Part shown: piece by piece, positions 5,059 to 33,841 of the stretch
Numbering within the stretch: position 1 is the first letter of the stretch
Layout of the letters: each line of letters starts with the position of its first letter
Assembly (NCBI GenBank): GCA_002369525.1
Contig: DFFN01000042.1
Coordinates: 1 to 45,815, forward strand
DNA from: Lachnoclostridium sp. UBA3775
GTDB lineage: Bacteria; Bacillota; Clostridia; Lachnospirales; Lachnospiraceae
Length of the DNA: 45,815 nt
Direction: 5' to 3'
Position numbers and translations under genes: made by a program
The notes under the pieces: generated by a model
Database searches by the model: none
Seen by the model: only the letters and a program-made list of their open reading frames with translations
Told to the model about the DNA's origin: nothing

Positions 5059-5059
5059 T

Positions 5060-8122: not shown

Positions 8123-8141
8123 TTTGCGGGAGGTGGAAGAA

Positions 8142-8843
8142 ATGGGTGAGTCTGTTAAAGATAGACTTGCGGCAGTAAAAAAAAGCATAGAAGAATGTGC
8201 AAAGGCCTGTAAAAGAGACAAAGAGGTAAAACTTATTTGTGTTTCAAAAACCAAGCCTTCGGAAATGATAATGGAAGCCTATGAGTCCGGAGAACGTGAT
8301 TTCGGCGAGAATTATGTTCAGGAGCTTTGTGCGAAGGCAGAAGAGCTCCCTAAGGACATTATCTGGCACATGATAGGTCCGCTCCAGAAAAACAAGGTAA
8401 GAAAAGTCGTAAAGTATGCGGAATATATTCATGCTGTTGACAGTGTCGAGCTTGCGGCATTCATTGATAAAGAGGCGGAGCGTATAGGCAAGGTTCAGAA
8501 AATTATGCTTGAGCTTAACATGGCCGGTGAGGAAAGCAAGCATGGATTTAAACCCGAGGAAGTTATTGATGCGGTTAAGGAGATTGCTCCTTTAAAAAAC
8601 ATTAAGCTTACAGGTCTGATGTGCATACCCCCGCTTGCAGTTTCGGCGGATGACAACAGAGTATATTTCAGGCAGATAAAAAGCCTTGAAAAAAAGATCA
8701 ATGACATGGGAATCTGCGATTCGGAACTTACCGAGCTTTCCATGGGCATGAGTGAGGATTACAAATGCGCAATTGAAGAAGGCGCAAGCTACATACGCAT
8801 CGGAACAGCAATATTCGGTGCAAGGGATTACAGTAAAAAATAA
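8142..8843 (+). CDS. yggS: YggS/YlmE-family PLP-binding homeostasis protein
   Basis: KLICVSKTKP (PLP lysine) with an alanine-racemase-N-like fold pattern. Start moved to the ATG at 8142 (RBS GGGAGGTGG at 8128-8136), because the ORF-track TTG at 8097 overlaps the upstream gene. Confidence 0.85.
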   Translation: MGESVKDRLAAVKKSIEECAKACKRDKEVKLICVSKTKPSEMIMEAYESGERDFGENYVQELCAKAEELPKDIIWHMIGPLQKNKVRKVVKYAEYIHAVDSVELAAFIDKEAERIGKVQKIMLELNMAGEESKHGFKPEEVIDAVKEIAPLKNIKLTGLMCIPPLAVSADDNRVYFRQIKSLEKKINDMGICDSELTELSMGMSEDYKCAIEEGASYIRIGTAIFGARDYSKK

Positions 8844-8866
8844 AAATATTAAAGGAGGACAATAAA

Positions 8867-9505
8867 ATGGGTCTGTTAAGCAGCTTGAAGGATGCCATCT
8901 TTATGGATGAGGATGAGGATGACGATGATGAACTGTATGAAAAAGAAATGAAAAATATCGAGAGGAAAGAAAACTCCAAAAAACGTGAGAGCAGTTATAC
9001 TCCCCGCAAAAAAGCAAGCGATTATGATGATAACTATCAGGACGAGTATGATGCTCCGGCGTCTAAAAATACAAGGGAGAAAAAGAAGCAGTCGACGGTT
9101 GAAAAATTCTCTTCCTATTCTTCTTCAAACATAACTCCCCCGAGAAGTCCCGAAAGCTCATATTCTTCTTACAGGAATCCCAAGCCTGTAAAGAGGACTC
9201 AGGATGCTTCCGATATCAGCATCTACAAGGTTAAGAATTTTTCCGATGCCCAGGTAGTATGTGACAGTCTTTCTTCGGGAAGAGCCATTATCGTAAGCTT
9301 TGATGAGATCAGCGAGGAAGAGTCACAGCGTATAATGGACTTTATCTGCGGATGCATTTATGTCATTGAAGGAAATATCCACACCATTTCGGAGAAAATT
9401 TATCTTTTTTCACCCAAGGATGTTGATGTTTCGGGCGATTACATGAGCATGGTTCAGAAAAACGGTTTTGGTGTTCCGACTTTTTCAGGCTCCAAGACAT
9501 ACTAA
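8867..9505 (+). CDS. sepF: Cell division protein SepF
   Basis: Acidic and disordered N-terminal half. Conserved SepF C-domain (IYKVKNFSDAQVVCDSLSSGRAIIVSF...QRIMDFICGCIYVIEGNI). Synteny yggS-sepF-divIVA. Confidence 0.85.
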   Translation: MGLLSSLKDAIFMDEDEDDDDELYEKEMKNIERKENSKKRESSYTPRKKASDYDDNYQDEYDAPASKNTREKKKQSTVEKFSSYSSSNITPPRSPESSYSSYRNPKPVKRTQDASDISIYKVKNFSDAQVVCDSLSSGRAIIVSFDEISEEESQRIMDFICGCIYVIEGNIHTISEKIYLFSPKDVDVSGDYMSMVQKNGFGVPTFSGSKTY

Positions 9506-12850: not shown

Positions 12851-12864
12851 GAAAGGTAAACGAT

Positions 12865-13239
12865 ATGAGTACAATCAGGCTTCATGAAGGTGAATTGAAC
12901 GTAATGGAGATGCTCTGGAGCAATCAGAGCCTTCCTGCAAAGGATATTGCCAAAATAATAAAGGATTATATCGGCTGGGAGAAGAATACTACTTATACTG
13001 TAATTAAACGTCTGATAGATAAAGGTGCCGTTAAACGTGAGGATCCCGGATTTGTCTGCAAGGCCTGCATTACCAAAAAGGAAGTGCAGAAGATTGAGAC
13101 CGATGCTTTGATAGACAAGGTTTTCAGCGGCAGCCTTACGGAATTCATCGATAATTATCTCGGGCAGAAAAAGCTTACATCGGAAGAAATGCTTCACTTA
13201 AGAAAGGTAATCGAGGCTCAGTATAAGAATATGTTTTAA
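12865..13239 (+). CDS. BlaI/MecI/CopY-family winged-helix transcriptional repressor
   Basis: 124 aa. LHEGELNVMEMLWSNQSLPAKDIAKII...TTYTVIKRLIDKGAVKRE is the typical penicillinase-repressor N-domain. No BlaR1/M56 sensor gene adjacent. Confidence 0.8.
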   Translation: MSTIRLHEGELNVMEMLWSNQSLPAKDIAKIIKDYIGWEKNTTYTVIKRLIDKGAVKREDPGFVCKACITKKEVQKIETDALIDKVFSGSLTEFIDNYLGQKKLTSEEMLHLRKVIEAQYKNMF

Positions 13240-13248
13240 TTTATGTTC

Positions 13249-13277
13249 TTGACATGAAATGAAAAATATTGTATTAT
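13249..13277 (+). promoter_or_regulatory. Sigma-A promoter: TTGACA - 17 nt - TATTAT
   Basis: Consensus -35 at 13249-13254 and -10 at 13272-13277, upstream of rny (RBS GGAGGTG, ATG at 13333). Confidence 0.5.
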
Positions 13278-13332
13278 AATAATGTTGTTTATTTTTTGAA
13301 TTTTGACAATTAAATATGGAGGTGTCATTTAA

Positions 13333-14880
13333 ATGATAAAAATACTGATTTCAGTCATTGTCACCGCTATAATAGTATTTCTGATTACCTGGAAGGCTGC
13401 CATTGCATATAGAATCAAGGTATATGAAGCAAAGGTCGGAGAAGCCAACAAGCTTGCGGATGAAATCAAAGCCGAAGCAGAAAAGGCTGCAGAAACTATG
13501 AAGCGTGAAGCTTTGCTTGAAGCAAAAGAGGAAGCTTTAAAAGCAAAGAATGACTTTGATCGAGAAAAGAAAGAACAGCGTGCTGAGCTTCAGCGCACTG
13601 AAAAGAGATTGGTATCTAAGGAAGAAAATATTGACAGGAAGACGGAAGCCCTCGAAAAGAAAGAACAGCGCATGAACCAGAAGGAGCAGGAGCTGGATGC
13701 ACTTCGTAAACAGGCTAAGGACAGTGCTGACAAGCAGCTTGCCGAGCTCGAGAGAATTTCCGGATTCACCTCCGAAAAAGCAAAAGAATATCTTTTACAA
13801 TCTGTTAAAGAAGAATGTACGCATGAAATGGCTGTGCTTGTCAAGGACATTGAGACCAAGGCAAGAGAGGATGCCGATAAAAAGGCAAGAGACATAGTTG
13901 TCAATGCGATACAAAGATGTGCCGCCGACAGTGTAACAGAGGCAACCATATCTGTTGTTCAGCTTCCCAATGACGAGATGAAGGGAAGAATCATCGGACG
14001 TGAGGGAAGAAATATCAGAACGATTGAAACCCTTACCGGCGTCGATCTCATAATCGACGATACTCCCGAGGCAGTAATTCTTTCATGCCACGATCCTATC
14101 AGACGTGAAGTGGCCAGGATCGCTCTTGAAAGACTTATCATAGACGGACGTATTCATCCTACAAGGATTGAAGAAATGGTTGACAAGGCCAAGAAAGAAG
14201 TTGAAAACATCATAAGAGAGGAAGGAGAAGCAGCTGTCATAAAGACAGGTGTGCATGGACTTCATCCCGAGCTTGTTAAGCTTCTCGGCCGCATGAAATA
14301 CCGTTTCAGTTATGGTCAGAATGCCCTTAAGCATTCAATCGAGGTTTCAATCCTTTCAGGTCTTCTGGCTGCCGAAATGGGTCAGGATGTAAGGCTTGCA
14401 AAACGTGCCGGCCTTCTTCATGATATAGGAAAGTCCGTTGACCATGAGGTTGAAGGAACCCACGTTCAGATCGGTGCCGAACTTTGCAGAAAATATAAGG
14501 AATCCAATATTGTCATCAATGCGGTTGAAGCTCATCACGGTGACGTTGAATTCGGTTCGCTTATCGCATGCATCGTTCAGGCAGCTGATACAATAAGTGC
14601 CGCTCGTCCCGGTGCAAGAAGAGAAACACTTGAAAATTACACTAACAGATTAAAACAGCTTGAAGATATTGCCAACAGCTTTAACGGAGTTGAGAAATCC
14701 TTTGCTATACAGGCGGGCCGTGAGGTTCGTGTTATGGTAGTTCCTGATCAGATCAATGATGATGAAATGGTTCTTTTGGGCAGAGAGCTTGCAAAGAAGA
14801 TAGAGTCAGAGCTTGAATACCCGGGCCAGATCAAGGTCAGCCTGATAAGGGAATCCAGAGTTACCGATTATGCAAAATGA
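13333..14880 (+). CDS. rny: Ribonuclease Y
   Basis: N-terminal TM, long charged coiled coil, KH domain ([12 protein letters not shown]), HD domain (LLHDIGK ... AHHG). Confidence 0.95.
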
Positions 14881-14885
14881 TTCGA

Positions 14886-14919
14886 GGCTGCTTACTTATG
14901 GGTAAGCAGCCTTATTTTT
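14886..14919 (+). terminator. Rho-independent terminator of rny
   Basis: GGCTGCTTAC / GTAAGCAGCC 10-bp perfect stem (14886-14911) followed by TTATTTTT. Confidence 0.8.
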
Positions 14920-14940
14920 ATATAAAAATCAATTTGTGTC

Positions 14941-14969
14941 TTGCTTTTTTCTCGGTTTTAATGTAGAAT
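14941..14969 (+). promoter_or_regulatory. Sigma-A promoter: TTGCTT - 17 nt - TAGAAT
   Basis: -35 at 14941-14946 and -10 at 14964-14969, upstream of the aminotransferase gene. Confidence 0.55.
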
Positions 14970-14976
14970 TAAAAAG

Positions 14977-14988
14977 ATTGTATACAAT
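14977..14988. promoter_or_regulatory. Perfect 12-bp palindrome ATTGTATACAAT (candidate operator)
   Basis: Self-complementary 12-mer starting 8 nt after the -10, i.e. at or near the predicted TSS of the aminotransferase operon. Confidence 0.35.
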
Positions 14989-15038
14989 CCCCCTAAAGGG
15001 CGATCTATAACCATATGTATCATCAGGAGGAGAAATAA

Positions 15039-16238
15039 ATGTCACTATCATTGTCTGTTAAAGCAACAAAGGTAAAGCCTTCATCAACGCTTGCGATTTC
15101 AGCAAAGGCAAATGAGCTTAAAGCTCAGGGCCTTGATGTTGTAAGCTTCGGAGCCGGAGAGCCCGATTTCCAGACTCCGGAAAATATTAAGGATGCGGCA
15201 CATGCTGCGATAAACAATAACTATACCAAATATACAGCCGCTTCGGGTATGCCCGCGCTTAAACAGGCTGTCTGCGATAAATTTGCGAGATTCAATAATC
15301 TTAAATATGAGCCTTCTCAGGTTGTGATCAGCAACGGAGGAAAGCATACGCTTATGAATGCTTTTCAGGCAATACTTAATCCCGGAGATGAAGTCATCAT
15401 TCCCGCTCCCTACTGGCTCAGCTATCCGGAGATGGTAAAGCTTGCTGACGGTGTTCCCGTGTTTGTAAGATGCGAAGCAGACCAGCAGTATAAAATTACC
15501 GCCAAACAGCTTGAGGATGCCTGTACGGAAAAAACAAAGGCATTTGTTCTGACAAGCCCCAGCAATCCTACCGGTATGGTTTATAACAAGGAAGAACTTG
15601 AAGCAATTGCCGAGGTTGTTGTTCGTAAGGATATTTTTGTGATTTCGGATGAAATATATGAGAATCTTGTTTATGATGACAATAAGGCTGTCAGCATTGC
15701 GAGTCTTAACGATGAGATATATAAGCATACAATTACCTGCAACGGTATGGCTAAGGGCTATTCGATGACAGGCTGGAGAATAGGTTATTGCGGCGCTCCC
15801 AAGGATGTTGCAAAGGCCATGTCCTCCGTTCAGTCCCATCAGACATCAAACCCCAATACAATTGCCCAGCATGCTTCTGTCGAAGCATTAAACGGTCCTC
15901 AGGAATCCGTTGCCCTCATGAGAGAACAGTTTGATAAGAGAAGGCAGGTAATGTATGACAGAATCAGCAAAATGCCATATTTCTCTATGTTAAAGCCTCA
16001 GGGTGCATTCTATGCATTTATCGACTGTCATGAGGTTATCGGAAAAAAACATAAGGGTACCGTTATTAACGATATATCCGACTTTGCAAAAATACTTATT
16101 GAGGATTATCTTGTTGCGGTTATTCCCTGCGCTGATTTTGGTTTTGCCGACCATATCAGGCTTTCATATGCAACCAGTCTCGAGCAGATCAACAAAGGTC
16201 TTGACAGGATAGCCGAATGCCTTTCAAACCTTAAATAA
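15039..16238 (+). CDS. Class I PLP-dependent aminotransferase (aspartate aminotransferase-like)
   Basis: SNPTGMVY and NGMAKGYSMTGWRIGY (PLP lysine) blocks; 399 aa; RBS AGGAGGAG. Confidence 0.85.
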   Translation: MSLSLSVKATKVKPSSTLAISAKANELKAQGLDVVSFGAGEPDFQTPENIKDAAHAAINNNYTKYTAASGMPALKQAVCDKFARFNNLKYEPSQVVISNGGKHTLMNAFQAILNPGDEVIIPAPYWLSYPEMVKLADGVPVFVRCEADQQYKITAKQLEDACTEKTKAFVLTSPSNPTGMVYNKEELEAIAEVVVRKDIFVISDEIYENLVYDDNKAVSIASLNDEIYKHTITCNGMAKGYSMTGWRIGYCGAPKDVAKAMSSVQSHQTSNPNTIAQHASVEALNGPQESVALMREQFDKRRQVMYDRISKMPYFSMLKPQGAFYAFIDCHEVIGKKHKGTVINDISDFAKILIEDYLVAVIPCADFGFADHIRLSYATSLEQINKGLDRIAECLSNLK

Positions 16239-20405: not shown

Positions 20406-20439
20406 AGGCAGGAACCTTTCGGAACCTGCCTCTTTTTTT
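20406..20439. terminator. Probable bidirectional terminator between convergent scpB and the 806-aa gene
   Basis: AGGCAGG...CCTGCCT stem plus inner CC/GG pairs (20406-20431). T7 downstream (20433-20439) and an A-rich run upstream. Overlaps the stop codon of the - strand gene. Confidence 0.6.
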
Positions 20440-22858
20440 ATTCGTCAATGTACTTGTTGTAAAATCTTTTTACTATGATATCAAGAGCATATTCATCAAG
20501 CTTTCCAAAGTTTGAACGAAGAAGAGCCTTAATGCCTTCAATCTTGAGGTCGTAGTTTTCTTCATTGCTTGCCGTGGCTTTCTCAAACTGCTTAGCCGTT
20601 GTCTTGGTGCAGTTGGTAATGAGCCATGAGGTAAACAGTGAGTTCAGCTGACCGCCTGTAAGTGCGAGTACAAAATTAGTGGACTTCAATGCCGTGAAAT
20701 CCTTGGGCTGTGATGTACCCTTAACTGCTTCAACCGAGAAGAGCTTGTTAAGCTCATAGGAATTGGTAGATCTTAGCGTGCCTGTCAGGGAAGCGAGAGA
20801 GTTGCTCGAATCATCGGAACTGCCCTGAGCACCGCCCTTACGGTATTTGGAATAATCAATCTCTGTTCGTGACGTATAGAAGGACATATCGTCTTTTTTC
20901 TGTGAGTAATCGGGAACGAAACCTGTATAGTCAAGTTTAACATCCTCTTCCTCATCAACGACAACGAAATCAGGATTCTTTTCCTTTTTGGGCTTGGCCT
21001 TGTTGGGATTGTTCTTCCTTTCCATGGCACGTTTTTCAGTTTTAGCTTTCAGTTTTTTATAGGCTTCGGGATCGAATCCCATGCTCTGTGCGATCCTTGT
21101 GTCTTCATCGTCGGTATCGTCTTCATGATAATCAGGTACGAAACCTCTGTATATACCCGAATCAATATCGTCAATATTATCGGTATCACCGAACTTGGAA
21201 TTTTTTTTGGAATCAAAAGCAGCTTTGAATTTATCTGCTCCTGATTTCTTTAAATCTTTGTTGATCACTTCTTCGAAAACTTTGTTGTCGGAGCTTGAAC
21301 TCTTTGAACTGTCCTTGGAAGTGAAAGGATTGTCAGCAAAAATATCTTCAACAATCGGTTCGGTTGTATAACGGCTGTCATCATCAAGGCTGAATTCAGG
21401 TTCCTTGCGAATAAAGCTGTCAAATATGCTCTCGGGCGTCTTTTCCTCTTTGGGAGTAGTTATATCTTCGGGAGCAGGGAGTGGAGATGAGAATGTGGAT
21501 TCACCTGAAGACGCAGCAAACTCATTTCCTGAGAAAAAAGGTATACCGGAATCTTCCTGTTCATCATCTGCTTTGGGAACCTCTTCCTTTTGTGCACCGA
21601 AAATCGAATTGAATTTTTCCTGCTTGATAGAAGAGAAGAAGCTGGAATATTCGTCTCCGGAATCATTCTTTTTTACTTCTTCGGTATCTTCTTCAGAACC
21701 GGGCTCAACCTCAACAGCATCAACAACAATGGTGTCACCGATATTGTATTCCTCTACAGGTTCTGTTTCAACAAAGATAGGTCCGTCTTCGGGTTCGATA
21801 TCTTCGAAGAAATTGCTGGTTTCGGGCATCTTGAAATCGGAGGAGACTGCTTCACCGTCAACTCTGGGAATGTAACCGAAGCGTGATTCTTCCGTTTTGC
21901 CGAGCTCATCAAAGCTGAATCCTTTGGAAGTTCTCGTGCTTTTCTGAGTATCGTTAGACTGCTGTTTGAAAAGGTCGGTGAAACGGTTAACCCTCTGTTC
22001 ACTTTCTTCCTTCTTGCGTCTTTCTTCCTCTTCCTTACGGCGTAAAGCTTCCTCGGCAGCACGTTTTCTTTCTTCCTCGGCACGGGCTTTAAGTTCTTCT
22101 TCGGCAGCACGTTTGGCTTCTTCTGCACGGAGTCTTGCTTCTTCTGCCTGAGCTTTCAGGGCATCAATCTTAGCCTGGGCAGCAGCTTTTGCCTGTTCTG
22201 CCTTAAGCTTGGCTTCCTCCTGAATCCTCTTTTTATATTCCTCGGCTTCACGAACCTTTGCTTCAGCTTCTTCACGAGCCCTCTGAGCTTCATTTTTAAC
22301 TCTTTCGGCTTCAGCCTCGGCACGCTTGATTTCTTCGGCCTGTATACGCTTTCTTTCTTCTTCGAGACGTCTGCGTTTTTCTTCCTCTTCCTGCTTTCTG
22401 CGTTCCTCGGCTTCGGCTTTGCGTCTTGCTTCTTCTTCTGCCCTGCGTCTTGCTTCCTCTTCGGCACGTTTCTTTGCTTCTTCTTCGGCGCGACGCTTGT
22501 CTTCCTCAGCTTTGAGACGTTTTGCTTCAATAGCATAGAATGCGGTATAAGCTTTCAAGGCTTCCTTCGATTTTTCGGGAGCAACATTGATCTTATAGTT
22601 TCTTTCGCGAAGATTCATGTTGTAGCTTGACGGTATGCCCTGTGAGTTGAGATATTCAACAACACGTTCTGCTGACTCTTCACTGGTAACAGAAAACAAT
22701 GAAATTGTCTTGTTGGCAGCTTCGGCAGCAGGAGAAGGCTCTTCATTTTTTTCCGGCTCCGGAACTCCGGCAATTGTTATAAGCCCCATTTTGCAATCCG
22801 GACAGATCATAACAGAATCGTCAAAAGTCTTTTTGCATTTGGTACATTGTTTAGACAT
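20438..22858 (-). CDS. Zinc-ribbon protein with ~180-aa E/R/K-rich helix, long acidic disordered region and a conserved C-terminal domain (806 aa)
   Basis: Start set at the ATG at 22858 (GGAGG at 22870-22866, 7-nt spacer); the ORF-track start at 22885 translates the RBS. N-terminus CTKCKKTFDDSVMICPDCKMGL plus an alpha/beta domain that I judge DUF2007-like by recall. Paralog of 28715..29659. Confidence 0.6.
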   Translation of the reverse strand: MSKQCTKCKKTFDDSVMICPDCKMGLITIAGVPEPEKNEEPSPAAEAANKTISLFSVTSEESAERVVEYLNSQGIPSSYNMNLRERNYKINVAPEKSKEALKAYTAFYAIEAKRLKAEEDKRRAEEEAKKRAEEEARRRAEEEARRKAEAEERRKQEEEEKRRRLEEERKRIQAEEIKRAEAEAERVKNEAQRAREEAEAKVREAEEYKKRIQEEAKLKAEQAKAAAQAKIDALKAQAEEARLRAEEAKRAAEEELKARAEEERKRAAEEALRRKEEEERRKKEESEQRVNRFTDLFKQQSNDTQKSTRTSKGFSFDELGKTEESRFGYIPRVDGEAVSSDFKMPETSNFFEDIEPEDGPIFVETEPVEEYNIGDTIVVDAVEVEPGSEEDTEEVKKNDSGDEYSSFFSSIKQEKFNSIFGAQKEEVPKADDEQEDSGIPFFSGNEFAASSGESTFSSPLPAPEDITTPKEEKTPESIFDSFIRKEPEFSLDDDSRYTTEPIVEDIFADNPFTSKDSSKSSSSDNKVFEEVINKDLKKSGADKFKAAFDSKKNSKFGDTDNIDDIDSGIYRGFVPDYHEDDTDDEDTRIAQSMGFDPEAYKKLKAKTEKRAMERKNNPNKAKPKKEKNPDFVVVDEEEDVKLDYTGFVPDYSQKKDDMSFYTSRTEIDYSKYRKGGAQGSSDDSSNSLASLTGTLRSTNSYELNKLFSVEAVKGTSQPKDFTALKSTNFVLALTGGQLNSLFTSWLITNCTKTTAKQFEKATASNEENYDLKIEGIKALLRSNFGKLDEYALDIIVKRFYNKYIDE

Positions 22859-22892
22859 TCTTTCTCCTCCTGTGTAGAATAACACTTAATAT

Positions 22893-22921: not shown

Positions 22922-23097
22922 GCACAAGCAGTGTACAATAAAAATTACTTGAACAAATGACGTGATTTTTTACATTTTTGTAATTAATCATTTTAAATAT
23001 AACGTTTTTTACAAAATAATTAAATTTATATACCGGATGAACGAAATATTTTTTCTTTTTTTGTAAGTTTTGATCAATGAAAAATCTGCCGGTTTTC

Positions 23098-23106
23098 TGT
23101 TATAAT
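23098..23106 (+). promoter_or_regulatory. Extended -10 promoter element TGTTATAAT
   Basis: TGnTATAAT at 23098-23106 with only a weak -35 (ATGAAA). Would give a ~100-nt 5'UTR for the 251-aa/adhesin operon. Confidence 0.4.
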
Positions 23107-23162
23107 TGCTCATATAAAAAAGTCTTCCGGATTTTTAAAATCCGTCGGTTTCATTTGGTGAA

Positions 23163-23212
23163 GCTGCAGGCGCGTCACCAAAGGGTATAACGCCTGCGTC
23201 ATGGTACGATAA
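23163..23212 (+). promoter_or_regulatory. Conserved leader element, copy A (GC hairpin + ATGGTACGATAA abutting the start codon)
   Basis: GCTGCAGGCG...CGCCTGCGTC inverted repeat followed by ATGGTACGATAA|ATG. Near-identical copy at 29809-29859. No Shine-Dalgarno for the downstream ORF. Confidence 0.5.
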
Positions 23213-23968
23213 ATGAAGAAAAAAATATGTTTCTTTATTGCGGCTTTATTTCTTTTGTTGTTTATTCTATATCTTAAGACAAACCGCATCAGTTCAAAGG
23301 TTAAAAATCAAATGAATATCCCGACTGCTACGGAAACAATTGCAAAACCCGAACTGACAATTGTGGAGCCGACAAAAAAGATAAGCGTCAGGGTATCAAC
23401 ACCTGAAGTCTCAAAAGCAATGATTCCGGAAATAGCAGGAGATCCGACAATGATTACAAAAACAATAAAGCCGACACTAACGGCCGGTCCGACATATCTG
23501 CCGGAAACAATTACTGTCCCAACAATTATTCCGGAACATATTACAATTGCATTGACGAAAGAACCGTTTCCGACAACGTTACCGACACAGACAATAATAA
23601 TAACGCCAACGCCTGCAGCGATAACATCAAAAGTGATTTCGGAAGCCTTGTCATCCGAATGTTTACACAAAAGAAAGAAAACAATATATGAAACCGTAAC
23701 AGTAAATGCCGAAGGCATATGGGTTGATGTGGAGGTTTATAAAGAGATGCTTGTCTGTGAGTGCGGAAAGAGGGAAGATGAATTTGATGACATATCAGAT
23801 TTTTATCTTCATTGTCTTAAAAATGACGAAAATTACTGTTTGGAAAATGTTCCAAGCGGTGAATATTACAGGGAGTGGAAGGAAACACGTGCCGAATACA
23901 CTTATGAAAGAGAGGTGGGATGGATATGCCCTGATTGCAATGAAAAGTATTATAATAAGCAGAATTGA
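23213..23968 (+). CDS. Signal-anchored Pro/Thr/Ile-rich protein with Cys-rich C-terminal domain (251 aa, unknown function)
   Basis: N-terminal TM (ICFFIAALFLLLFILYL), a ~110-aa P/T-rich linker, and a C-terminal ~100 aa with 7 Cys (CxC, CPDC). The adhesin gene starts 12 nt downstream. Confidence 0.65.
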   Translation: MKKKICFFIAALFLLLFILYLKTNRISSKVKNQMNIPTATETIAKPELTIVEPTKKISVRVSTPEVSKAMIPEIAGDPTMITKTIKPTLTAGPTYLPETITVPTIIPEHITIALTKEPFPTTLPTQTIIITPTPAAITSKVISEALSSECLHKRKKTIYETVTVNAEGIWVDVEVYKEMLVCECGKREDEFDDISDFYLHCLKNDENYCLENVPSGEYYREWKETRAEYTYEREVGWICPDCNEKYYNKQN

Positions 23969-23980
23969 AAGGAAAACAAA

Positions 23981-26900
23981 ATGAAAAACATAAATAAAAA
24001 AATGATTGCAGGACTTCTTATGCTTGTTTTGCTTGCCGGAATCATTCTCGGTGAAAGCAATCTTGCCGCTTTTGCAATGGAGTCAAAAGAAAAAGAAAAG
24101 GTAAGCTTAAGCTTTAACGACAAGGGAAAACTGTTTTTTGAAAAAGAAAGGGGTAATCAGGCTTGTTTTAAATCAGGTGAAACAGTCAAAGTATATTTTG
24201 ATGCCATAGAGGATTATGCCCTGACAGAGCTTAATGTTTATTCTGCATCGGGAAATATTGAATACGAAATGGATATGCAGCAAAACTGCTTTACTTTTGT
24301 AAAACCTGATGAGAGCGTTATGGTAAGTGCAGTCTTTTCATGGATGCGGACAACCGGACTGAATAAGGTTGGGAAAGCCGAGGTGGTTGGCGGTATCGAA
24401 TATATTATAAACAATATCGATGAAAAGTATATAGCCTTGAAAAATATCAAGGAAATTGTTCCCGCTGACGGAATCTGGGTAAAGGATACTTTGGCTGACG
24501 GTTCAAAGCTTAAAGAAAAAACGATAGATGCAATGACTTCTGTAGTGGAATGCGACGATCCGGATTTTGATGCATATGCTCTTATATCCCAGACCGACAG
24601 CGTGAGCATATTGTATGATGCCGATCCGACTTCGGATTACTATGTTTCATATGTTGATAAAATGACAAATGACAATGAAAGCTATATAAGTGACTTTTGT
24701 TTTGCCTATACCAACATGAACGGCGAAGTGATAAAGGACTGTATTTTTGACAGAAAAACAGGTCTGGCATATGTTCCGAAGAAATATACAGTTGAAAATA
24801 AAAACGGACTTGGTGTTCTAAATGTTCAGGTACAGTTATTGCATATATTCAGGAATAACGAGGCTAAAGCCGGAGTGAATGTAATTATCGAAAAAGATGG
24901 CATCAAAGGGAAAACAGCGGAAAGCGGAAAAATCAAAACCGACGCCGTGTACGAAGAAATATATATTCAGCTTGCGGAGGACAAAAAAGCCTTATCGGAA
25001 ATAAAAGAAGAAAACCTCCGTGTTTATGTTGACGGAATATCAAACAGCGATTTTTCCTATAGTGAGGAAAGCGGAGTTCTTGCAATAAATGCGGGAGCAG
25101 CTGGCATTGACACTGTTGAAATCAGCATAAATAAAGAAAAGGAAAATAATGCAGTAACCGACCTGCTGCTCAGAGCTTCCGGTATAATGGGACTTAAGGC
25201 AAATGCGGCAGATGCCACAACAATGAGAAGCATTCCGGTTTCGGGACAGGTGATAAAGGTCAGTGATGTACCTGTTGTCGGCGATTCGTGGGAAATGAAC
25301 TGGTGGTACAATTATATCGGAAGAAGTATCGGAGATTATAATCTGAAAGCCAATTCGGGCACGGCAACATTTTATGATGAGGAATGTAAGGCCGCAGCTA
25401 ATTCTTTGTATAACGGAGTAAATACCAGCTCGGTAAACGCAGGAATAAATGTTGACGGTGCCTATGCCTATACTCTTGATATCAACGGAAATGTCCTTGA
25501 CGGTTTGAGCGCTGTGCAGGATTATGTAATCAACAATAACGGTAAGTATTCTCTTGACAAAGCAGTAAGCATGATTTCGGGCAATATGAACGGTGAGCTT
25601 ATAACCGTAGGAGGACCGAGAACCGATGCCGTTTCTGCATCTAAGGGATGGTATACGAAGAGTTCGAACGGAAGAACATATGTATATGACGGCTGGTATA
25701 ACAATTCAGGCCAGACCTATATCGAAAATTATTACAGAAGCATCAATACCGACATAAAGGAGGCATATATTTCAACGGGAAGCCAGAATCTGAAAAAGAT
25801 GGTAGACAATAATATAGATCCTCTTGCCTGTTCATATGTGATCTATATGAAATGCAATCATTCGGGAGCATCTTTCGGCGAAAACAACTCAAGACGCGTA
25901 ATGGCAAGAGTTATCGCCGTAAATGAAAACGAAGGTACGATGTACATAGCCTATACCTCATCAAAAGACAATACTCAGACAACTTCCGCCATCTATAAGT
26001 ACAGGTATGTTCTGCCCGAAGAGCCCCTGGGGTCGGTACGCTTTAAAAAGGGATCTTCTATGAAAAGCATAACCGATAATAATAAGTGCTATTCATTTGA
26101 AGGAGCGGTTTATTCCCTTTTCTATAAAAAAGAAAGTAATCCCGTTGCGGTATATAACAATGACGGATATGTTTTTAATCAGGGCATAAAGGTTGCGGAA
26201 TTTGTTGTCGGAGCGGACGGAAACGGAAGAGCAGACAAACTGAATTTGGCTGAGTTTAAAAATCTTGAGATTTCAACGGACAAGCTTATTCTTGGCGGAC
26301 TTCCAGCCGGATTTTATGCTCTTGCGGAAACGAAAAGACCAGACAATAACAGTTATGCGATTGAGAGAGAAATACACAGGTTTGAAATAAACAGGGAAAA
26401 TGCAGAAAATACCGTGATGATCAGCGGAAGCGATATTCCGTACAACGACCCGATGCTGATAACAATTAAGAAGGAAGGTTTAAATTCCGCATCGTTTGAT
26501 ATGTCAGGCACCGTGTTCAGGCTTGATTATTACGATGATTTTTACGAAAAAGCTGAGGAACTTCCCGAAGAATGCACAAAAACATGGTATTTGTCTCCGA
26601 AGAAAGCCAAAGACACCTATATCTGCGCATACGATGAAGCTTACATTACAAAGCAGGCGGGATATATAAGCGACAGCCTATATACAAGCCTTGAAAACAA
26701 ACCGGTACTACCTCTCGGAACAATTGTACTAAGAGAAGTTAAGGCGGCACAGGGGTTTGTAAAAAACAGCGGAGAACTTAAGGACAGTAAAGGAAATGTT
26801 TTTCCGAACAATGTTTTTATCGGCAGGGTATCATATTCCGAAGAACTCGGACGTGCCTGCCTTAAGGGAATATACGGAAAGCAGTCCGCTCTTTATTTTG

Positions 26901-28672
26901 CAGATTATCCCGAGGGGGCAGAGCTTTTGATGACAAATGAGGCTGTCAGAGGCGACATAAGCCTTCGAAAAAAGAACCTGAATAATGACGAGGGCATGAA
27001 AAATATAAGCTTCAGGCTTTCGCTTCTTGACGCCGAAGGGAAAATTACCGAATCAAATATCATCACCACAGGAACGGAAGGCGAATATGATTCGATAAAT
27101 GATGACAAGCTTAAATTTGCAGGCAAAAAAGGTCTGGTATACGGAAAATACATGCTCGAAGAGATTAGAAACGATGCAAATAAGGGCTATATACTTGCCG
27201 ATCCCATAATCTTTGAAATAAGCGAGGACAAGCAAAAGCTTGAATTCATAATATGTAATGCACCCGAACCTGAGCTTTCAACTTTTGAAGCGGATGTTAA
27301 CATGGGAAAACACTTCAGCTTTTCAGGAAAGATCAAGGTAAAGGATACGGTGAAATACAATAATCTTGAAGCAGGTAAGGAATATACTGTCAAAGGAATC
27401 CTTATGAAAAAGTCGGAGGATGAAATAAAGCCTCTTAAAGATAAGAACGGTAATTTAATCTGCGCCAACAGTTACATAGTAACGCCCGGTGAATTTTCCA
27501 AAAACCGTTATGAATTCTGCGGAGAAACCGAGCTGCTGTTTGAGTTTGAAGACGAAAAAGAAAACGGTACCTGCTTTGTGATATTTGAATACCTGTTTGA
27601 AGGAAAAGATGAGGAAAAACTTAAAACAGACGAAAATGACCGTGTGATAACAGGTGATGTATACAAAGACAAAGAAGGAAATGAGGTAAAGCATACCGAT
27701 GCAAATGATGTAAATCAGACCGGATATATACCGGTCATACATACCAAAGCAAGAGATTCAAAAACAGGAGAAAATATTGCGCTTGCAGCTAAGGATACGG
27801 TTCTGATCGATAAGGTAAGCATATCCGGAATAATACCGGATGAGGATTATGTGATAAAGGGCCGGCTTTATATCAAGAATGATAAGGACTTTTATAAGAA
27901 TGAAAACGGCGAAATACTGGTTGTTGAAAAAGAGCTTAAGGCTTCGGCTGCAGAGCCCCGGCTTGAACTGGTTTTTGAGATTGATGCATCTGAGCTTAAA
28001 GGAAAAGATATAGTGGTTTTTGAAGAGCTGTATTATGGCGATGATCTGATTGCAAAGCATGAAGATGCAGATGACGTGGATCAGACTATAAGCTTTCCGG
28101 AGGGAAAAACAAAGGCTTCAAACAAGGAAGGAAACGGAAATGTAATTAATAACGATGGTCTTTCTACAATTGTAGACAAAGTCATGTATAATAATCTGAT
28201 TCCGGGAAAAAACTATGTTCTTAAGGCCGTTCTAATGGATAAGGCTGACAACAGTGTGATCAAAAGAGAAAACGGAGAAGAATTCTATGTCCTGAGGGAT
28301 TTTATACCAAAGGAAAAGAGCGGGGAAGAAGAGCTTACGATCGTAATTGACAGTAAGCTTGTCGCCGGAAAGACTCTGGTTGTTTTTGAAGAATGTACGC
28401 GTGACGGGAAAAAAGTTTTTATCCATGCTGACATAAATGACGGTGAACAGACCGTTTTTGTACCCGAAATTCCCGAAGAACCGGAAAAGCCGGAAACACC
28501 GGATGTTCCTGAAACACCGGACACTCCAAAAACTCCTGAAACACCAAATAAGCCTTCCGAGCCTTCTTCGCCAAAAACGGCCGATGATTTTGACAGCAGA
28601 TACTTTTTGTTTGCGCTTATCTCGGTAATAACTCTGGGATTTTCCGAAAGAATGAAAAAGAAACACAGATAA
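23981..28672 (+). CDS. Cell-wall-anchored surface adhesin, 1563 aa (SpaA/CnaB-like domains + 3 VaFE/Thr-Gln ester repeats + SPKTA sorting signal)
   Basis: Signal peptide (..NLAAFA|ME). SpaA-like blocks (GAVYSLFY, GLPAGFYALAETKRP, GTVFRLDYY, ISFRLSLLDAEG..GKYMLEEI). Three repeats ending HxDxxDxxQT. Pro-rich stalk, SPKTAD, a hydrophobic helix and an RMKKKHR tail. Confidence 0.85.
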   Translation: MKNINKKMIAGLLMLVLLAGIILGESNLAAFAMESKEKEKVSLSFNDKGKLFFEKERGNQACFKSGETVKVYFDAIEDYALTELNVYSASGNIEYEMDMQQNCFTFVKPDESVMVSAVFSWMRTTGLNKVGKAEVVGGIEYIINNIDEKYIALKNIKEIVPADGIWVKDTLADGSKLKEKTIDAMTSVVECDDPDFDAYALISQTDSVSILYDADPTSDYYVSYVDKMTNDNESYISDFCFAYTNMNGEVIKDCIFDRKTGLAYVPKKYTVENKNGLGVLNVQVQLLHIFRNNEAKAGVNVIIEKDGIKGKTAESGKIKTDAVYEEIYIQLAEDKKALSEIKEENLRVYVDGISNSDFSYSEESGVLAINAGAAGIDTVEISINKEKENNAVTDLLLRASGIMGLKANAADATTMRSIPVSGQVIKVSDVPVVGDSWEMNWWYNYIGRSIGDYNLKANSGTATFYDEECKAAANSLYNGVNTSSVNAGINVDGAYAYTLDINGNVLDGLSAVQDYVINNNGKYSLDKAVSMISGNMNGELITVGGPRTDAVSASKGWYTKSSNGRTYVYDGWYNNSGQTYIENYYRSINTDIKEAYISTGSQNLKKMVDNNIDPLACSYVIYMKCNHSGASFGENNSRRVMARVIAVNENEGTMYIAYTSSKDNTQTTSAIYKYRYVLPEEPLGSVRFKKGSSMKSITDNNKCYSFEGAVYSLFYKKESNPVAVYNNDGYVFNQGIKVAEFVVGADGNGRADKLNLAEFKNLEISTDKLILGGLPAGFYALAETKRPDNNSYAIEREIHRFEINRENAENTVMISGSDIPYNDPMLITIKKEGLNSASFDMSGTVFRLDYYDDFYEKAEELPEECTKTWYLSPKKAKDTYICAYDEAYITKQAGYISDSLYTSLENKPVLPLGTIVLREVKAAQGFVKNSGELKDSKGNVFPNNVFIGRVSYSEELGRACLKGIYGKQSALYFADYPEGAELLMTNEAVRGDISLRKKNLNNDEGMKNISFRLSLLDAEGKITESNIITTGTEGEYDSINDDKLKFAGKKGLVYGKYMLEEIRNDANKGYILADPIIFEISEDKQKLEFIICNAPEPELSTFEADVNMGKHFSFSGKIKVKDTVKYNNLEAGKEYTVKGILMKKSEDEIKPLKDKNGNLICANSYIVTPGEFSKNRYEFCGETELLFEFEDEKENGTCFVIFEYLFEGKDEEKLKTDENDRVITGDVYKDKEGNEVKHTDANDVNQTGYIPVIHTKARDSKTGENIALAAKDTVLIDKVSISGIIPDEDYVIKGRLYIKNDKDFYKNENGEILVVEKELKASAAEPRLELVFEIDASELKGKDIVVFEELYYGDDLIAKHEDADDVDQTISFPEGKTKASNKEGNGNVINNDGLSTIVDKVMYNNLIPGKNYVLKAVLMDKADNSVIKRENGEEFYVLRDFIPKEKSGEEELTIVIDSKLVAGKTLVVFEECTRDGKKVFIHADINDGEQTVFVPEIPEEPEKPETPDVPETPDTPKTPETPNKPSEPSSPKTADDFDSRYFLFALISVITLGFSERMKKKHR
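27269..28465 (+). repeat. Three tandem ~120-155-aa VaFE-type (Cpe0147-like Thr-Gln ester bond) domain repeats within the adhesin
   Basis: Each unit has an N-terminal Thr (LSTFEA / IHTKAR / GKTKAS), a V(V/I)FEE(L/C/Y) strand and a C-terminal HxDxxDxxQ motif (KHTDANDVNQT, KHEDADDVDQT, IHADINDGEQT). Confidence 0.6.
28466..28576 (+). repeat. Pro-rich P-E-x-P tandem repeat stalk (PEIPEEPEKPETPDVPETPDTPKTPETPNKPSEPSSP)
   Basis: Repeated CCNGAAACACC(G/A)-type units at DNA level; the wall-spanning linker before the sorting motif. Confidence 0.6.
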
Positions 28673-28716
28673 AAAAAGTGTCAGAGCAGTAACTAAACCG
28701 CTCTGACACTTTTTTT
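28671..28716. terminator. Bidirectional rho-independent terminator
   Basis: Perfect 11-bp stem AGTGTCAGAGC / GCTCTGACACT (28677-28710) flanked by A7 and T6. Shared by the convergent adhesin and 314-aa genes, and overlaps both stop codons. Confidence 0.85.
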
Positions 28717-29659
28717 AGTCGTCAAATAAACCGTTATAATATTCTTCGACCAAAGAATCAAGATAAACTTCATCAAGCGAAACAAGCTCGGGTATTTCCA
28801 GGGTCATACGCTTTTTTATGTAATCTATGCGAAGAAGGAAGTTTTCTTCGGGGCTGTTTTCAGAAGAGTCGGCACTTTTAATATCGTCTGCGCTGATATT
28901 CTGTGAAAGCCAGGTTTTAATGTGGTTTGTCAGCTGTTCTTCCTGAACCGAGTCGGCCTGATATTCCTTGGATTTTTTGAGAGAATGAAAACCCCAGTAT
29001 GTCATGGCAACGAACATGAACAGCATCATTATGTATGAGAAAAGCTGCGTATTTACAATTGAAAGCAGTCCGAGCATATGAAGCAGGACAAAAACAATTC
29101 CGCCGATTCCTATAAATATCAGCATATAGCCGCTTCCTGACATTTCCTCGGCTTTGGCTTTTTTGGATTCGTAGACCGTTGATCCGCCGGCATATACGAA
29201 ATCCCTCAGTGTATCTATTTCCTCTTCAGAGGATTCTCTATTATCATTTTCAGATGCTTCCGGGCTGTCTGGATGCTTATCCTCAGCTTCGTGCAGTTTC
29301 TTAAGATTGGAAGCGACCTCCTGCATATTGACTGTGTCGACAATATACGACCCGTCGATCTGCCTTACACAGGCAAGATTTCCTTCAACCTTTACAAAGG
29401 CAGCCAAAGCCTTTTTGGCCTGATCGTAATCATCTTCGGAAAAAGAAAGATAATCAATATCATCAACATAAACAGGCTTTGCCTGAATCCTGCTGTATTC
29501 CAGATATTTTATAAATTTGGAATAGGCTTCATCATCGTTAAAATGGCAGAGCGGTCTGTCGGAAGAAATGTCCAACGAAGCAACCAAGGGGGTATTGCAA
29601 TCGCTGCAAAAGGTGAAACCGTCTCTGTATTCATTCTTGCATTTGGGACACCAGGGCAT
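28715..29659 (-). CDS. Zinc-ribbon membrane protein (314 aa), short paralog of 20438..22858
   Basis: CPKCKNEYRDGFTFCSDCNTPL plus the same alpha/beta domain. Two TM helices (GYMLIFIGIGGIVFVLLHMLGLL, LFSYIMMLFMFVAMTYWGF). The C-terminal QL..WL..N...EEN..L.I..IK...LDE..LD..V..YYN pattern is shared with the 806-aa protein. Confidence 0.6.
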   Translation of the reverse strand: MPWCPKCKNEYRDGFTFCSDCNTPLVASLDISSDRPLCHFNDDEAYSKFIKYLEYSRIQAKPVYVDDIDYLSFSEDDYDQAKKALAAFVKVEGNLACVRQIDGSYIVDTVNMQEVASNLKKLHEAEDKHPDSPEASENDNRESSEEEIDTLRDFVYAGGSTVYESKKAKAEEMSGSGYMLIFIGIGGIVFVLLHMLGLLSIVNTQLFSYIMMLFMFVAMTYWGFHSLKKSKEYQADSVQEEQLTNHIKTWLSQNISADDIKSADSSENSPEENFLLRIDYIKKRMTLEIPELVSLDEVYLDSLVEEYYNGLFDD

Positions 29660-29751: not shown

Positions 29752-29780
29752 TTGAAGAATTCCGAAAGCTATGATAAAAT
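29752..29780 (+). promoter_or_regulatory. Sigma-A promoter: TTGAAG - 17 nt spacer (ending in TGA) - TAAAAT, i.e. extended -10 TGATAAAAT
   Basis: -35 at 29752-29757; TGn plus -10 at 29772-29780. Predicted TSS ~29787 gives a ~72-nt leader containing the conserved element. Confidence 0.6.
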
Positions 29781-29808
29781 AACAACATAAATAAGAAGCT
29801 GAGGAATA

Positions 29809-29859
29809 GCTGCAGGCGTGTCACCGGATTGGCACCACGCCTGTGGTATGGTACGATAA
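29809..29859 (+). promoter_or_regulatory. Conserved leader element, copy B
   Basis: GCTGCAGGCGTG / CACGCCTGTGGT 12-bp stem (3 G-U), loop beginning TCACC, then ATGGTACGATAA|ATG. No Shine-Dalgarno for the radical-SAM ORF. Confidence 0.5.
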
Positions 29860-31731
29860 ATGAAAGAAACAAAGCTTGCTCTTTCCGAAGAAATATTAAT
29901 GAACATCGAAAAACCGGCGAGATATATCGGTGGTGAAGTTAATATGTCGGAAAAATACAAAGAGAATGTCGACATCAGGTTTTGCATGTGCTTTCCCGAT
30001 GTATATGAGATCGGAATGAGTCATCTGGGCATTCAGATTTTATATGATATGTTTAATAAAACAGATGGTGTAAGCTGTGAAAGAGTATATTCTCCATGGC
30101 CCGATCTTGACAGGATCATGAGAGAGAAAAATATACTCTTGTTTTCTCTTGAATCCCAGAGACCCATAAAGGAATTTGACTTTCTCGGTATCACGCTTCA
30201 GTATGAAATGTGTTACACGAATATACTGCAGATACTTGATCTGTCCGGCATTCCCCTGTTTTCGAAGGACAGAACAGAAGAGGATCCAATTGTCATAGGC
30301 GGCGGTCCCTGTTCATATAATCCGGAGCCCATTGCAGATTTTTTCGATATTTTTTATCTTGGCGAGGGAGAGACAAGATATGCCGAGCTTTTAATGCTCT
30401 ACAGACAATGTCGTAGGGAAAAGCTTGGCAGAGAGGAATTTCTAAAAAGAGCATGCCGTATACCGGGCATTTATGTTCCTTCTCTTTACAGTGTTGACTA
30501 TAATGATGACGGAACAATAAAAAGCTTTGAGCCGCTTTACGATTTTGTGCCGTCAAAAGTTAAAAAAGAAGTTGAAATGAATATGTCTGACACATATTAT
30601 CCCGAAAAACCCCTGATTCCCAATATTCAGGCGGTTCAGGACCGTGCAACTCTTGAAATCCAGCGCGGCTGCATAAGAGGATGCAGATTTTGTCAGGCAG
30701 GTATGATATACCGTCCGATAAGAGAAAGAAGCCTTGAATTTTTAAAGGATAAGGCAAAGAAAATGCTTGATTCCACAGGTTATGAAGAAATTACGTTAAG
30801 CTCCTTAAGCTCAAGCGATTATTCGAAGTTAAAAGAACTTGTTTATTTTCTTATTGACGAATACAGCAGCAAAAATATAAATATAGCCCTGCCTTCTCTG
30901 AGAATAGATGCTTTTGCCCTCGATGTTATGAGCAAGGTTCAGGACATAAACAAAAGCTCTGTTACTTTTGCCCCCGAAGCAGGCTCGCAAAGGATGAGAG
31001 ACACCATAAACAAAGGTCTTACCAAAGAGGATATTTTAAAGGGCTCAAGGCTTGCTTTCGAAGGTGGCTGGAACAAGGTAAAGCTTTATTTCATGCTCGG
31101 TCTTCCGACGGAAACCGAAGAGGATGCGAGAGATATCGCCAGACTGGCAAATGATATTGCGGTGGAATACTATGAAATTCCCAAGGATCAAAGGAACGGC
31201 AAGGTTTCGATAACGATAAGCACTTCTTTCTTTGTGCCGAAACCTTTTACTCCTTTCCAGTGGACTGCAATGGCTTCCAAGGAAGAATATCTTAGCCATA
31301 AATCTGCCCTGAGGGATGAGCTCGGAAAAATGCTTAATGCTAAGAGCATAAAATATAACTGGCATGACTCTGACACATCCGAGCTTGAGGGGGTATTCGC
31401 AAGAGGCGACAGAAGACTGGCTGCCGTAATATATGATGTGTATTCAAAGGGGTGTATTTTTGATGCCTGGGTTGAATATTTCAAATACGATGTATGGGAA
31501 GAATCCATAAGGTCACACGGTCTGTCCTTTGAATTTTACAACAGGCGTGAAAGAAGCTATGATGAAATACTTCCGTGGGATTTTATTGATGCTGGTGTAA
31601 GCAGGAATTTCCTGAAAAGAGAATACGAAAATGCAAAAAAGGCTGTTGTGACACCGAACTGCAGGGAAAAATGCTCCGGCTGCGGTGCTGCAGGCTATGG
31701 CGGAGGTGTATGCTTTGAGAGTAAGAATTAA
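29860..31731 (+). CDS. Radical SAM protein, TIGR03960-like (B12-binding-like N-domain), function unknown
   Basis: N-terminal KPARYIGGE signature and a CIRGCRFC (CxxxCxxC) cluster; 623 aa. Followed by its usual DUF2344 partner. Confidence 0.85.
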   Translation: MKETKLALSEEILMNIEKPARYIGGEVNMSEKYKENVDIRFCMCFPDVYEIGMSHLGIQILYDMFNKTDGVSCERVYSPWPDLDRIMREKNILLFSLESQRPIKEFDFLGITLQYEMCYTNILQILDLSGIPLFSKDRTEEDPIVIGGGPCSYNPEPIADFFDIFYLGEGETRYAELLMLYRQCRREKLGREEFLKRACRIPGIYVPSLYSVDYNDDGTIKSFEPLYDFVPSKVKKEVEMNMSDTYYPEKPLIPNIQAVQDRATLEIQRGCIRGCRFCQAGMIYRPIRERSLEFLKDKAKKMLDSTGYEEITLSSLSSSDYSKLKELVYFLIDEYSSKNINIALPSLRIDAFALDVMSKVQDINKSSVTFAPEAGSQRMRDTINKGLTKEDILKGSRLAFEGGWNKVKLYFMLGLPTETEEDARDIARLANDIAVEYYEIPKDQRNGKVSITISTSFFVPKPFTPFQWTAMASKEEYLSHKSALRDELGKMLNAKSIKYNWHDSDTSELEGVFARGDRRLAAVIYDVYSKGCIFDAWVEYFKYDVWEESIRSHGLSFEFYNRRERSYDEILPWDFIDAGVSRNFLKREYENAKKAVVTPNCREKCSGCGAAGYGGGVCFESKN

Positions 31732-33726: not shown

Positions 33727-33729
33727 TTG

Positions 33730-33758
33730 TTGACTTTTTTTGGGAATTTTGTTATATT
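33730..33758 (+). promoter_or_regulatory. Sigma-A promoter: TTGACT - 17 nt - TATATT with TGn extension
   Basis: -35 at 33730-33735; TGT+TATATT at 33750-33758. Upstream of rplU. Confidence 0.6.
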
Positions 33759-33764
33759 ATTTGA

Positions 33765-33835
33765 GTATGCCGCTTGGCGAGGTTTACAAGTATCGATGAT
33801 CACCGAAGCCAGCGAGTAATGATAATAGGAGGTGC
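33765..33835 (+). ncRNA. Structured rplU 5' leader (L21-leader-like ribosomal protein autoregulatory element)
   Basis: CGCT(T)GGC (33771-33778) pairs with GCCAGCG (33808-33814), and an inner GGT pairs with ACC. Position upstream of rplU-prp-rpmA matches the Firmicute L21 leader; class not verified. Confidence 0.4.
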
Positions 33836-33841
33836 CTTAAT

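Follow-up and report, generated by a model that had tools for sequence, protein, structure and literature searches.

A duplicated hairpin cassette that appears to part the Shine–Dalgarno sequence from the start codon in an uncultured Lachnospiraceae species

How does a ribosome find the first gene of a conserved operon when a stable hairpin fills the space upstream of its start codon, and why does the same leader recur in front of an adhesin operon? These questions arise from a window of 45,815 nt (the whole stretch of DNA analysed here) belonging to an uncultured gut member of the Lachnospiraceae, whose radical-SAM protein has a best GTDB species match of 71%. A first, sequence-only reading had proposed ligand- or RNase-responsive control of the operon. 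We find a cis-acting 5′UTR cassette of approximately 50 nt, which is lineage-specific and present as two paralogous copies in this one species. The element is real and is not a conserved riboswitch; most likely, it alters how translation starts.

A leader element in two copies

Copy B precedes the radical-SAM gene (TIGR03960 type, PF19864 + PF04055; 29860..31731, + strand), the first gene of an operon that runs radical-SAM, DUF2344, RNase E/G homologue (RNase G third); rplU, prp, rpmA and obg come after these genes. The start at 29860 is backed by orthologues beginning ATGAAAGA or MKET(K/R)LAL. The 12-bp stem described earlier, 12 nt before the ATG, is indeed present: its arms, 29809–29820 (GCTGCAGGCGTG; GCUGCAGGCGUG) and 29836–29847 (CACGCCTGTGGT; CACGCCUGUGGU), are recovered on the + strand from both the sequence and the fold, and their nine Watson–Crick and three G.U pairs enclose a variable loop of 15 nt (29821–29835), the whole hairpin spanning 29809..29847 (+ strand). 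At an RNA MFE of −22 kcal/mol, this is the sole strong structure predicted within the leader (29787–29875, itself predicted); its z-score is only approximately −2 against dinucleotide shuffles, so that the hairpin by itself is statistically unremarkable. From the stem end at 29847, a 12-nt tail, AUGGUACGAUAA, leads to the ATG at 29860, and this tail and the early coding region are A-rich and predicted to be largely unpaired. The tail also reads as an in-frame mini-ORF, AUG GUA CGA UAA (29848..29859, + strand), directly 3′ of the hairpin and with its stop codon abutting the main AUG, a feature missed in the first reading.

The promoter claimed for this operon was found again by scan, with a −35 TTGAAG, a 17-nt spacer and an extended −10 TGATAAAAT at 29752..29780 (+ strand) and a predicted transcription start site (TSS) near 29787. 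Both boxes are kept at equal spacing in two related species (loci L106 and L107), which supports a TSS upstream of copy B; the element is thus predicted to lie downstream of the promoter, in a transcribed 5′UTR, and to end at the ATG, as had been proposed. No intrinsic terminator was called on the + strand at either copy (the tail AUGGUACGAUAA is no U-tract), and neither a terminator nor an SD-sequestering alternative fold is predicted.

Copy A (23163–23215) stands in the same orientation, 6.6 kb from copy B. Its hairpin (23163..23200, + strand; −16.7 kcal/mol) has a core stem, 23165–23172 with 23191–23198, and a variable loop, and is followed by the same mini-ORF, AUG GUA CGA UAA (23201..23212, + strand), which abuts the ATG at 23213. 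A promoter-like site, ATGAAA-18-TGTTATAAT, is found upstream (23077..23106, + strand). The genes 3′ of copy A encode a 251-aa membrane-anchored PT-rich/Cys protein (23213..23968, + strand) and then a TQ/SpaA adhesin of 1563 aa (23981–28672, + strand). Outside the species, no homologue of the copy A genes exceeds 36% identity, and leaders are thus not comparable at this locus.

Copies A and B are true paralogues, in keeping with the first reading. Covariance model R1 gives them 88 and 84 bits (E approx. 1e-27) and has no other match in the window. The copies have in common the blocks AGCUGCAGGCG, GUCACC and ACGCCUG and an identical 17-nt tail, AUGGUACGAUAAAUGAA; a stem/loop-edge block of 18 nt is likewise identical before both operons. 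The mini-ORF has one and the same sequence in copy A, copy B and all strains. Its AUG follows the stem immediately in B (0 nt) and after 2 nt in A, and the distance from its UAA to the main AUG is 0 nt in both. Directly 5′ of each hairpin there is an SD-like motif, and, as read from the sequence, the repeat starts at the same anti-SD register in both copies.

Differences between the copies are concentrated in the apical loop, where 7 of 11 columns differ versus 4 of 46 elsewhere (Fisher p = 3e-4; non-loop divergence 9%). The strain polymorphisms within the element all fall in the loop as well: copy A shows A->C and GG->TT, and copy B shows T->C. The loop even exceeds neutral intergenic DNA in variability, while its GUCACC is kept. 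Stems and tails are invariant among strains, an invariance over 90 nt that is not significant at a strain divergence of just 1–3%. In the stem, A and B differ by GC<->GU exchanges that affect one side of a pair, and the non-Watson–Crick stem pairs are all G.U on the + strand (A.C on the other strand), as would be expected of an RNA transcribed from the + strand rather than of a DNA palindrome. With two copies and no compensatory double changes, however, conservation of structure is inseparable from recent common ancestry.

Comparison with related loci

The sequence-only reading had named a lack of conservation in orthologous operons as evidence against its proposals, and such a lack is what was found, the element being missing at 80 + 8 loci. 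Indeed, a motif scan and the covariance model placed it in none of the 80 orthologous radical-SAM/DUF2344/RNase G loci from Lachnospiraceae (GTDB species). An ordinary SD precedes M(R/K)KLALSDEILL in all 28 of the upstream regions read among these 80 loci, and the SD of the orthologues lies 6–8 nt before the same ATG. The element is equally absent from eight same-genus loci (L106, L107, L108–110 and L111–113; four proteins at 74–77% amino-acid identity, metagenome assemblies), which carry plain SDs.

The closest comparison, an alignment of the window with L106 and L107, shows that the divergent promoters are kept (TTGAAG-17-TATGATAAAAT or TGTTACAAT on the + strand, TTTACA on the − strand), that the start ATGAAAGAAA is common to all three and that an SD stands at equal distance from the −10. 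In the window only, a block of approximately 48 nt, from 29809 to approximately 29856, lies between this SD and the ATG; it comprises the hairpin and the first 9–12 nt of the tail, and its removal would leave a canonical ribosome-binding site (RBS), GAGGAAUAUAAAUG. The aligned sequences thus show that copy B, set between a conserved SD and the ATG and missing in relatives, is a lineage-specific insertion that split a pre-existing RBS.

This alters what can be said of the SD. The claim that the gene has none holds for the 12-nt tail, but not for the leader as a whole: GAGGAA (29801..29806, + strand), 2 nt before the copy B stem and 53 nt from the ATG at 29860, is homologous by position to the SDs of the relatives, aligning with AGGAAA and GGAGA of L107 and L106 at equal distance from the −10, and is the ancestral SD of the radical-SAM gene. 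Its predicted duplex with the anti-SD has −5.6 kcal/mol, a value reached by only 8.8% of intergenic 11-mers, and compares with −5.2 and −6.6 kcal/mol for the working SDs of the orthologues. In copy A, GGTGA (23157..23161, + strand) lies 1 nt before the element and 51 nt from the AUG at 23213; its duplex energy of −7.4 kcal/mol is likewise on a par with the orthologues' working SDs and is reached by just 2.7% of intergenic 11-mers. When only the proximal positions (−20..−1) are scored, the two element-bearing genes come out weakest among the credible starts in the window, the other genes of which have mostly GGAGG-type SDs 5–8 nt before the start. Judged from these start regions, the organism is otherwise strongly SD-dependent.

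Beyond the orthologous loci, the known distribution of the element comes down to two sites in one species, across the 60 kb source contig, the JGI scan and the related loci searched. With the pattern GTCACC-N15-30-ATGGTACGATAAATG, the JGI metagenome scan recovered the versions of copy A (L105) and copy B (L104) that belong to the same species and, apart from a single chance match, nothing else. Since independent assemblies from several samples carry the element, it is not an assembly artefact. Model R1 found no third copy in the 60 kb of the source contig, and no copy in approximately 0.74 Mb of Lachnospiraceae loci or in a distant adhesin locus. In viral (IMG/VR) scans, the full loop-to-tail pattern had no match and the three other scans gave chance partial matches only, blastn against plasmids and phages had none, and blastn-short against all fetched DNA revealed no progenitor sequence. 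Rfam 15 gave nothing relevant across the whole window at gathering score and no match over either copy even at E ≤ 10; the element stands outside every Rfam family and known repeat family.

How translation may start behind the element

The sequences themselves show two copies, each with its hairpin and mini-ORF, an inserted block that displaced an SD, and a strand bias; from these we infer, for every step, how a ribosome might behave at these leaders. We tentatively favour, at a probability of roughly 0.35, a split RBS in which the looped-out hairpin would join the SD to the AUG of the mini-ORF, with reinitiation then taking place at UAA|AUG. In a first step, the stable hairpin would loop out and bring the SD (GAGGAA in B, GGUGA in A) to approximately 4–5 nt from the mini-ORF AUG. 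The ribosome would then start at this AUG and make Met-Val-Arg, before terminating at the UAA and reinitiating on the abutting main AUG. The hairpin would thus be needed for translation rather than be a block to it, and the cassette would set, probably lowering or tuning it, the translation of both operons. The choice of the mini-ORF AUG follows from effective spacing: once the hairpin is looped out, approximately 4 nt would separate the SD from the mini-ORF AUG, and 16 nt, which is too long, would separate it from the main AUG. Initiation is therefore proposed at the mini-ORF.

Both halves of this proposal have precedents, and by analogy the element would work most like a split translation initiation region (TIR) combined with upstream-ORF (uORF) coupling. 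T4 genes 38 and 25 have an intervening hairpin that is needed for translation and that shortens the distance between SD and AUG, in one case from 22 to 5 nt, in the other from 27 to 11 nt (PMC3014915). The likeness to these split TIRs (Nivinskas et al. 1999; Malys & Nivinskas 2009; reviewed in PMC3014915) extends to an SD–start gap far beyond functional spacing, to a stable hairpin exactly between SD and start, and to a late origin within the lineage, more distant relatives being without it. The present case differs in lying on a bacterial chromosome, in its two paralogous copies, in its larger hairpin (39 nt) and in a looped-out geometry that fits the AUG of a 3-codon mini-ORF (approx. 4 nt) and not the main AUG (16 nt). 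As for the second half, termination–reinitiation requires overlap or near-zero distance (PMC10666635), and short uORFs acting through coupling or occlusion are documented (PMC13285730). Known termination–reinitiation systems and short bacterial uORFs (PMC6728339, PMC10666635, PMC13285730) share with our leaders an upstream stop 0 nt from an SD-less AUG, whereas here the putative ORF has 3 codons and an SD of its own that would be reachable only across the hairpin.

Several observations weigh against the split RBS. In copy A, a weak hairpin is predicted to tie up part of GGUGA, whose probability of being unpaired is 0.24, and pairing is predicted for the main AUG as well. The 39-nt hairpin exceeds the T4 examples in size. 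Moreover, the loop is hypervariable even within the species, and the pattern of differences between A and B would be explained equally well by a recent, neutral duplication in which one spot mutates readily. If the split RBS is correct, it would be a chromosomal and duplicated example of an arrangement documented so far mainly in T4-type phages, and its minimal uORF would show how an RBS-destroying insertion in a universally conserved operon is tolerated or exploited; if it is wrong, we are dealing merely with a species-specific duplicated leader.

Other explanations for the element

The main rival of the split RBS is a tolerated and essentially functionless insertion, a palindrome duplicated into two nearby 5′UTRs by illegitimate recombination or by a small mobile repeat; translation would then rely on inefficient SD-independent initiation at an unstructured A-rich start, the hairpin having no specific role. 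We regard this as only a little less probable than the split RBS. Confinement to one species, absence from all relatives and the existence of two copies only, a short distance apart, all agree with it; the 9% non-loop divergence fits a fairly young duplicate, the hypervariable loop calls for no constraint, and the A-rich, largely unpaired tail and early coding region of copy B would suit such a start. However, both copies end identically relative to the ATG and have an SD-like motif just 5′, for which the joint chance is below 1%. Furthermore, the radical-SAM operon is universally conserved and its first gene is 99% DNA-identical between strains, so that a crippled RBS should be counter-selected; the organism is otherwise strongly dependent on SDs. 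Nor are terminal inverted repeats or a consistent target duplication visible.

Like REP/MITE-like repeats, the element is a short imperfect palindrome, repeated, intergenic and lineage-specific. It differs from them in that its copies number only two, point the same way and stand at one and the same place with respect to a start codon, and in its G.U-only mismatches, which argue for RNA-level constraint. The terminal inverted repeats of such elements are not seen, the ends GCTGCAGG and GGTACGATAA not being inverted repeats, and in place of many dispersed copies there are two in the 60 kb contig, with the same two loci in the JGI scan. A possible ATA target duplication occurs at copy B only.

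A shared operator, to which an RNA-binding protein or sRNA would bind through the stem, the GUCACC loop edge or the AUGGUACGAUAA tail and thereby co-regulate both operons, appears improbable. The identical 17-nt tail and 18-nt stem/loop-edge block before two functionally unrelated operons, the retention of GUCACC amid a variable loop and the strand-specific signature at the RNA level are what such an operator might leave. On the other hand, a candidate factor is absent from the neighbourhood, further targets were found neither in the 60 kb of contig nor in the metagenome scan, and a two-site regulon in one species would be unusual. Inspection for known protein-binding motifs was likewise negative, with GGA in the loop of copy B only and no RAT, ANTAR or K-turn pattern.

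More speculative still, and in our estimation quite improbable, is a portable and self-sufficient initiation module, consisting of a hairpin and a 3-codon start–stop ORF abutting the main AUG, which could be inserted into the gap that separates an SD from its start codon. It would place the adhesin and the RNA-metabolism operons under one hairpin- or factor-dependent control, or else represent the operator of a new regulator. Such a module, if real, would be a mobile or duplicable RBS element of a kind undescribed in bacteria.

A promoter within the element, giving a leaderless or near-leaderless mRNA, is very unlikely. The tail (TGGTATGGT / TGGTACGAT) would serve as an extended −10, with transcription starting at or next to the ATG: TTGGCA-17-TGGTACGAT is found in copy B, TGgTATGGT (29844–29852), as read from the sequence, would give a TSS at approximately 29859–29860, and the absence of a proximal SD would be explained. 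Yet the −35 sits in the variable loop and is missing from copy A, which has CATGGT without the TG; with the better −10 (TACGAT), the transcript would begin within codon 2 and the conserved N-terminus would be lost, and a conserved sigma-70 promoter already stands upstream.

Least probable of all is what the sequence-only reading had put forward, a SAM/SAH-type riboswitch or an RNase E/G-responsive stem such as that of the E. coli rne 5′UTR, which has gene context only in its favour (a structured 5′UTR before an operon with a radical-SAM enzyme and an RNase E/G homologue), and which fails on the lack of any Rfam match at E ≤ 10 (rne5 included), of conservation in every orthologous operon examined and of expression-platform logic, no terminator being found and the hairpin hiding neither SD nor AUG, as well as on the occurrence of the same element before an adhesin operon. 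The ligand switch is further contradicted by the polymorphic loop, which as the site of a would-be ligand pocket is the most variable part, and the autoregulatory stem by the third place of the RNase G gene.

Several other candidates were set aside on inspection of the sequence. An H-type pseudoknot, in which GUCACC of the loop would pair with GGUAC of the tail, would have a 2-nt linker, too short for a 12-bp stem. Against a sigma-54 promoter, TGGCAC is confined to copy B, where it is not accompanied by the −12 GC; ECF and sigma-D type promoters are not common to both copies, and a CsrA site would have its GGA in the loop of copy B only. Guanidine-II type ACGR loops lack a stem, and a T4 gene 60-type bypass lacks an upstream ORF reading into the element. 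An att-site or Campbell-type integration between the repeats was discarded as the intervening Zn-ribbon gene and the radical-SAM promoter are ancestral.

Whichever reading is right, the element carries a warning for annotation, namely that gene callers mis-start genes behind such leaders. The SD-less start at 23213 was skipped by gene callers, and the annotation of the 251-aa gene is too short by 33 codons.

The adhesin slot and its left flank

The segment 22886-28714 of the window is a variable adhesin slot. In two metagenome loci of relatives without the element (L106 and L111), neither the 251-aa gene nor the gene for the TQ/SpaA ('VaFE repeat') adhesin is found between the flanking genes, and a third such locus (L107) carries a different sortase/SpaA/TQ cluster in place of this segment. 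Outside the species, no homologue of the adhesin above 36% identity was found. For the 251-aa gene, public gene calls place the start at 23312 (218 aa) rather than at 23213, thereby omitting the MKKK-plus-hydrophobic anchor of the product; the start at 23213 is presumably missed because it has no proximal SD.

The slot is bordered by an 815-aa ORF (20438-22885, minus strand) containing Glu/Lys-rich repeats with a 21/24-nt periodicity, for which the Pfam search returned no match. At the equivalent position, relatives encode unannotated proteins of 657-759 aa.

The neighbour of the radical-SAM gene

A zinc-ribbon membrane protein gene (28715-29659, minus strand) adjoins the radical-SAM gene. This adjacency is conserved (the L003 protein, 2053-2979, plus strand, shares 34% identity with that of the window), but the strand of the gene differs from species to species. 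In the relatives' loci L108-110, a 324-aa gene upstream of the radical-SAM gene (8030-9004, plus strand, in L108) is presumed to encode a homologue. The end of the 324-aa gene overlaps a TTG start of the radical-SAM gene there, making the two translationally coupled.

Additional signals in the two leaders

The copy A leader contains an additional AU-rich hairpin (CGGAUUU-UUAA-AAAUCCG, approx. 23125-23155) followed by a U-rich run. Weak attenuation or termination is a possible role for this hairpin, and scanning for terminators gave no call at this site. Specific to copy B, and absent from copy A, is a good sigma-70-like site, TTGGCA-17-(TG)TACGAT, which arises by chance in the loop and tail (29829-29857) and whose predicted TSS would fall inside radical-SAM codon 2.

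The rng-rplU junction

Ahead of rplU (33727-33841), the Rfam L21-leader model gave no match at the gathering score, even though the window has the rplU-prp-rpmA order that is usual in Firmicutes. In L111, whose radical-SAM protein is 74% identical, rng and rplU are separated by extra genes (12864-15538), including one for a 549-aa sigma70_r4/GerE protein, and an IS (rve transposase, 3997-5201) lies upstream.
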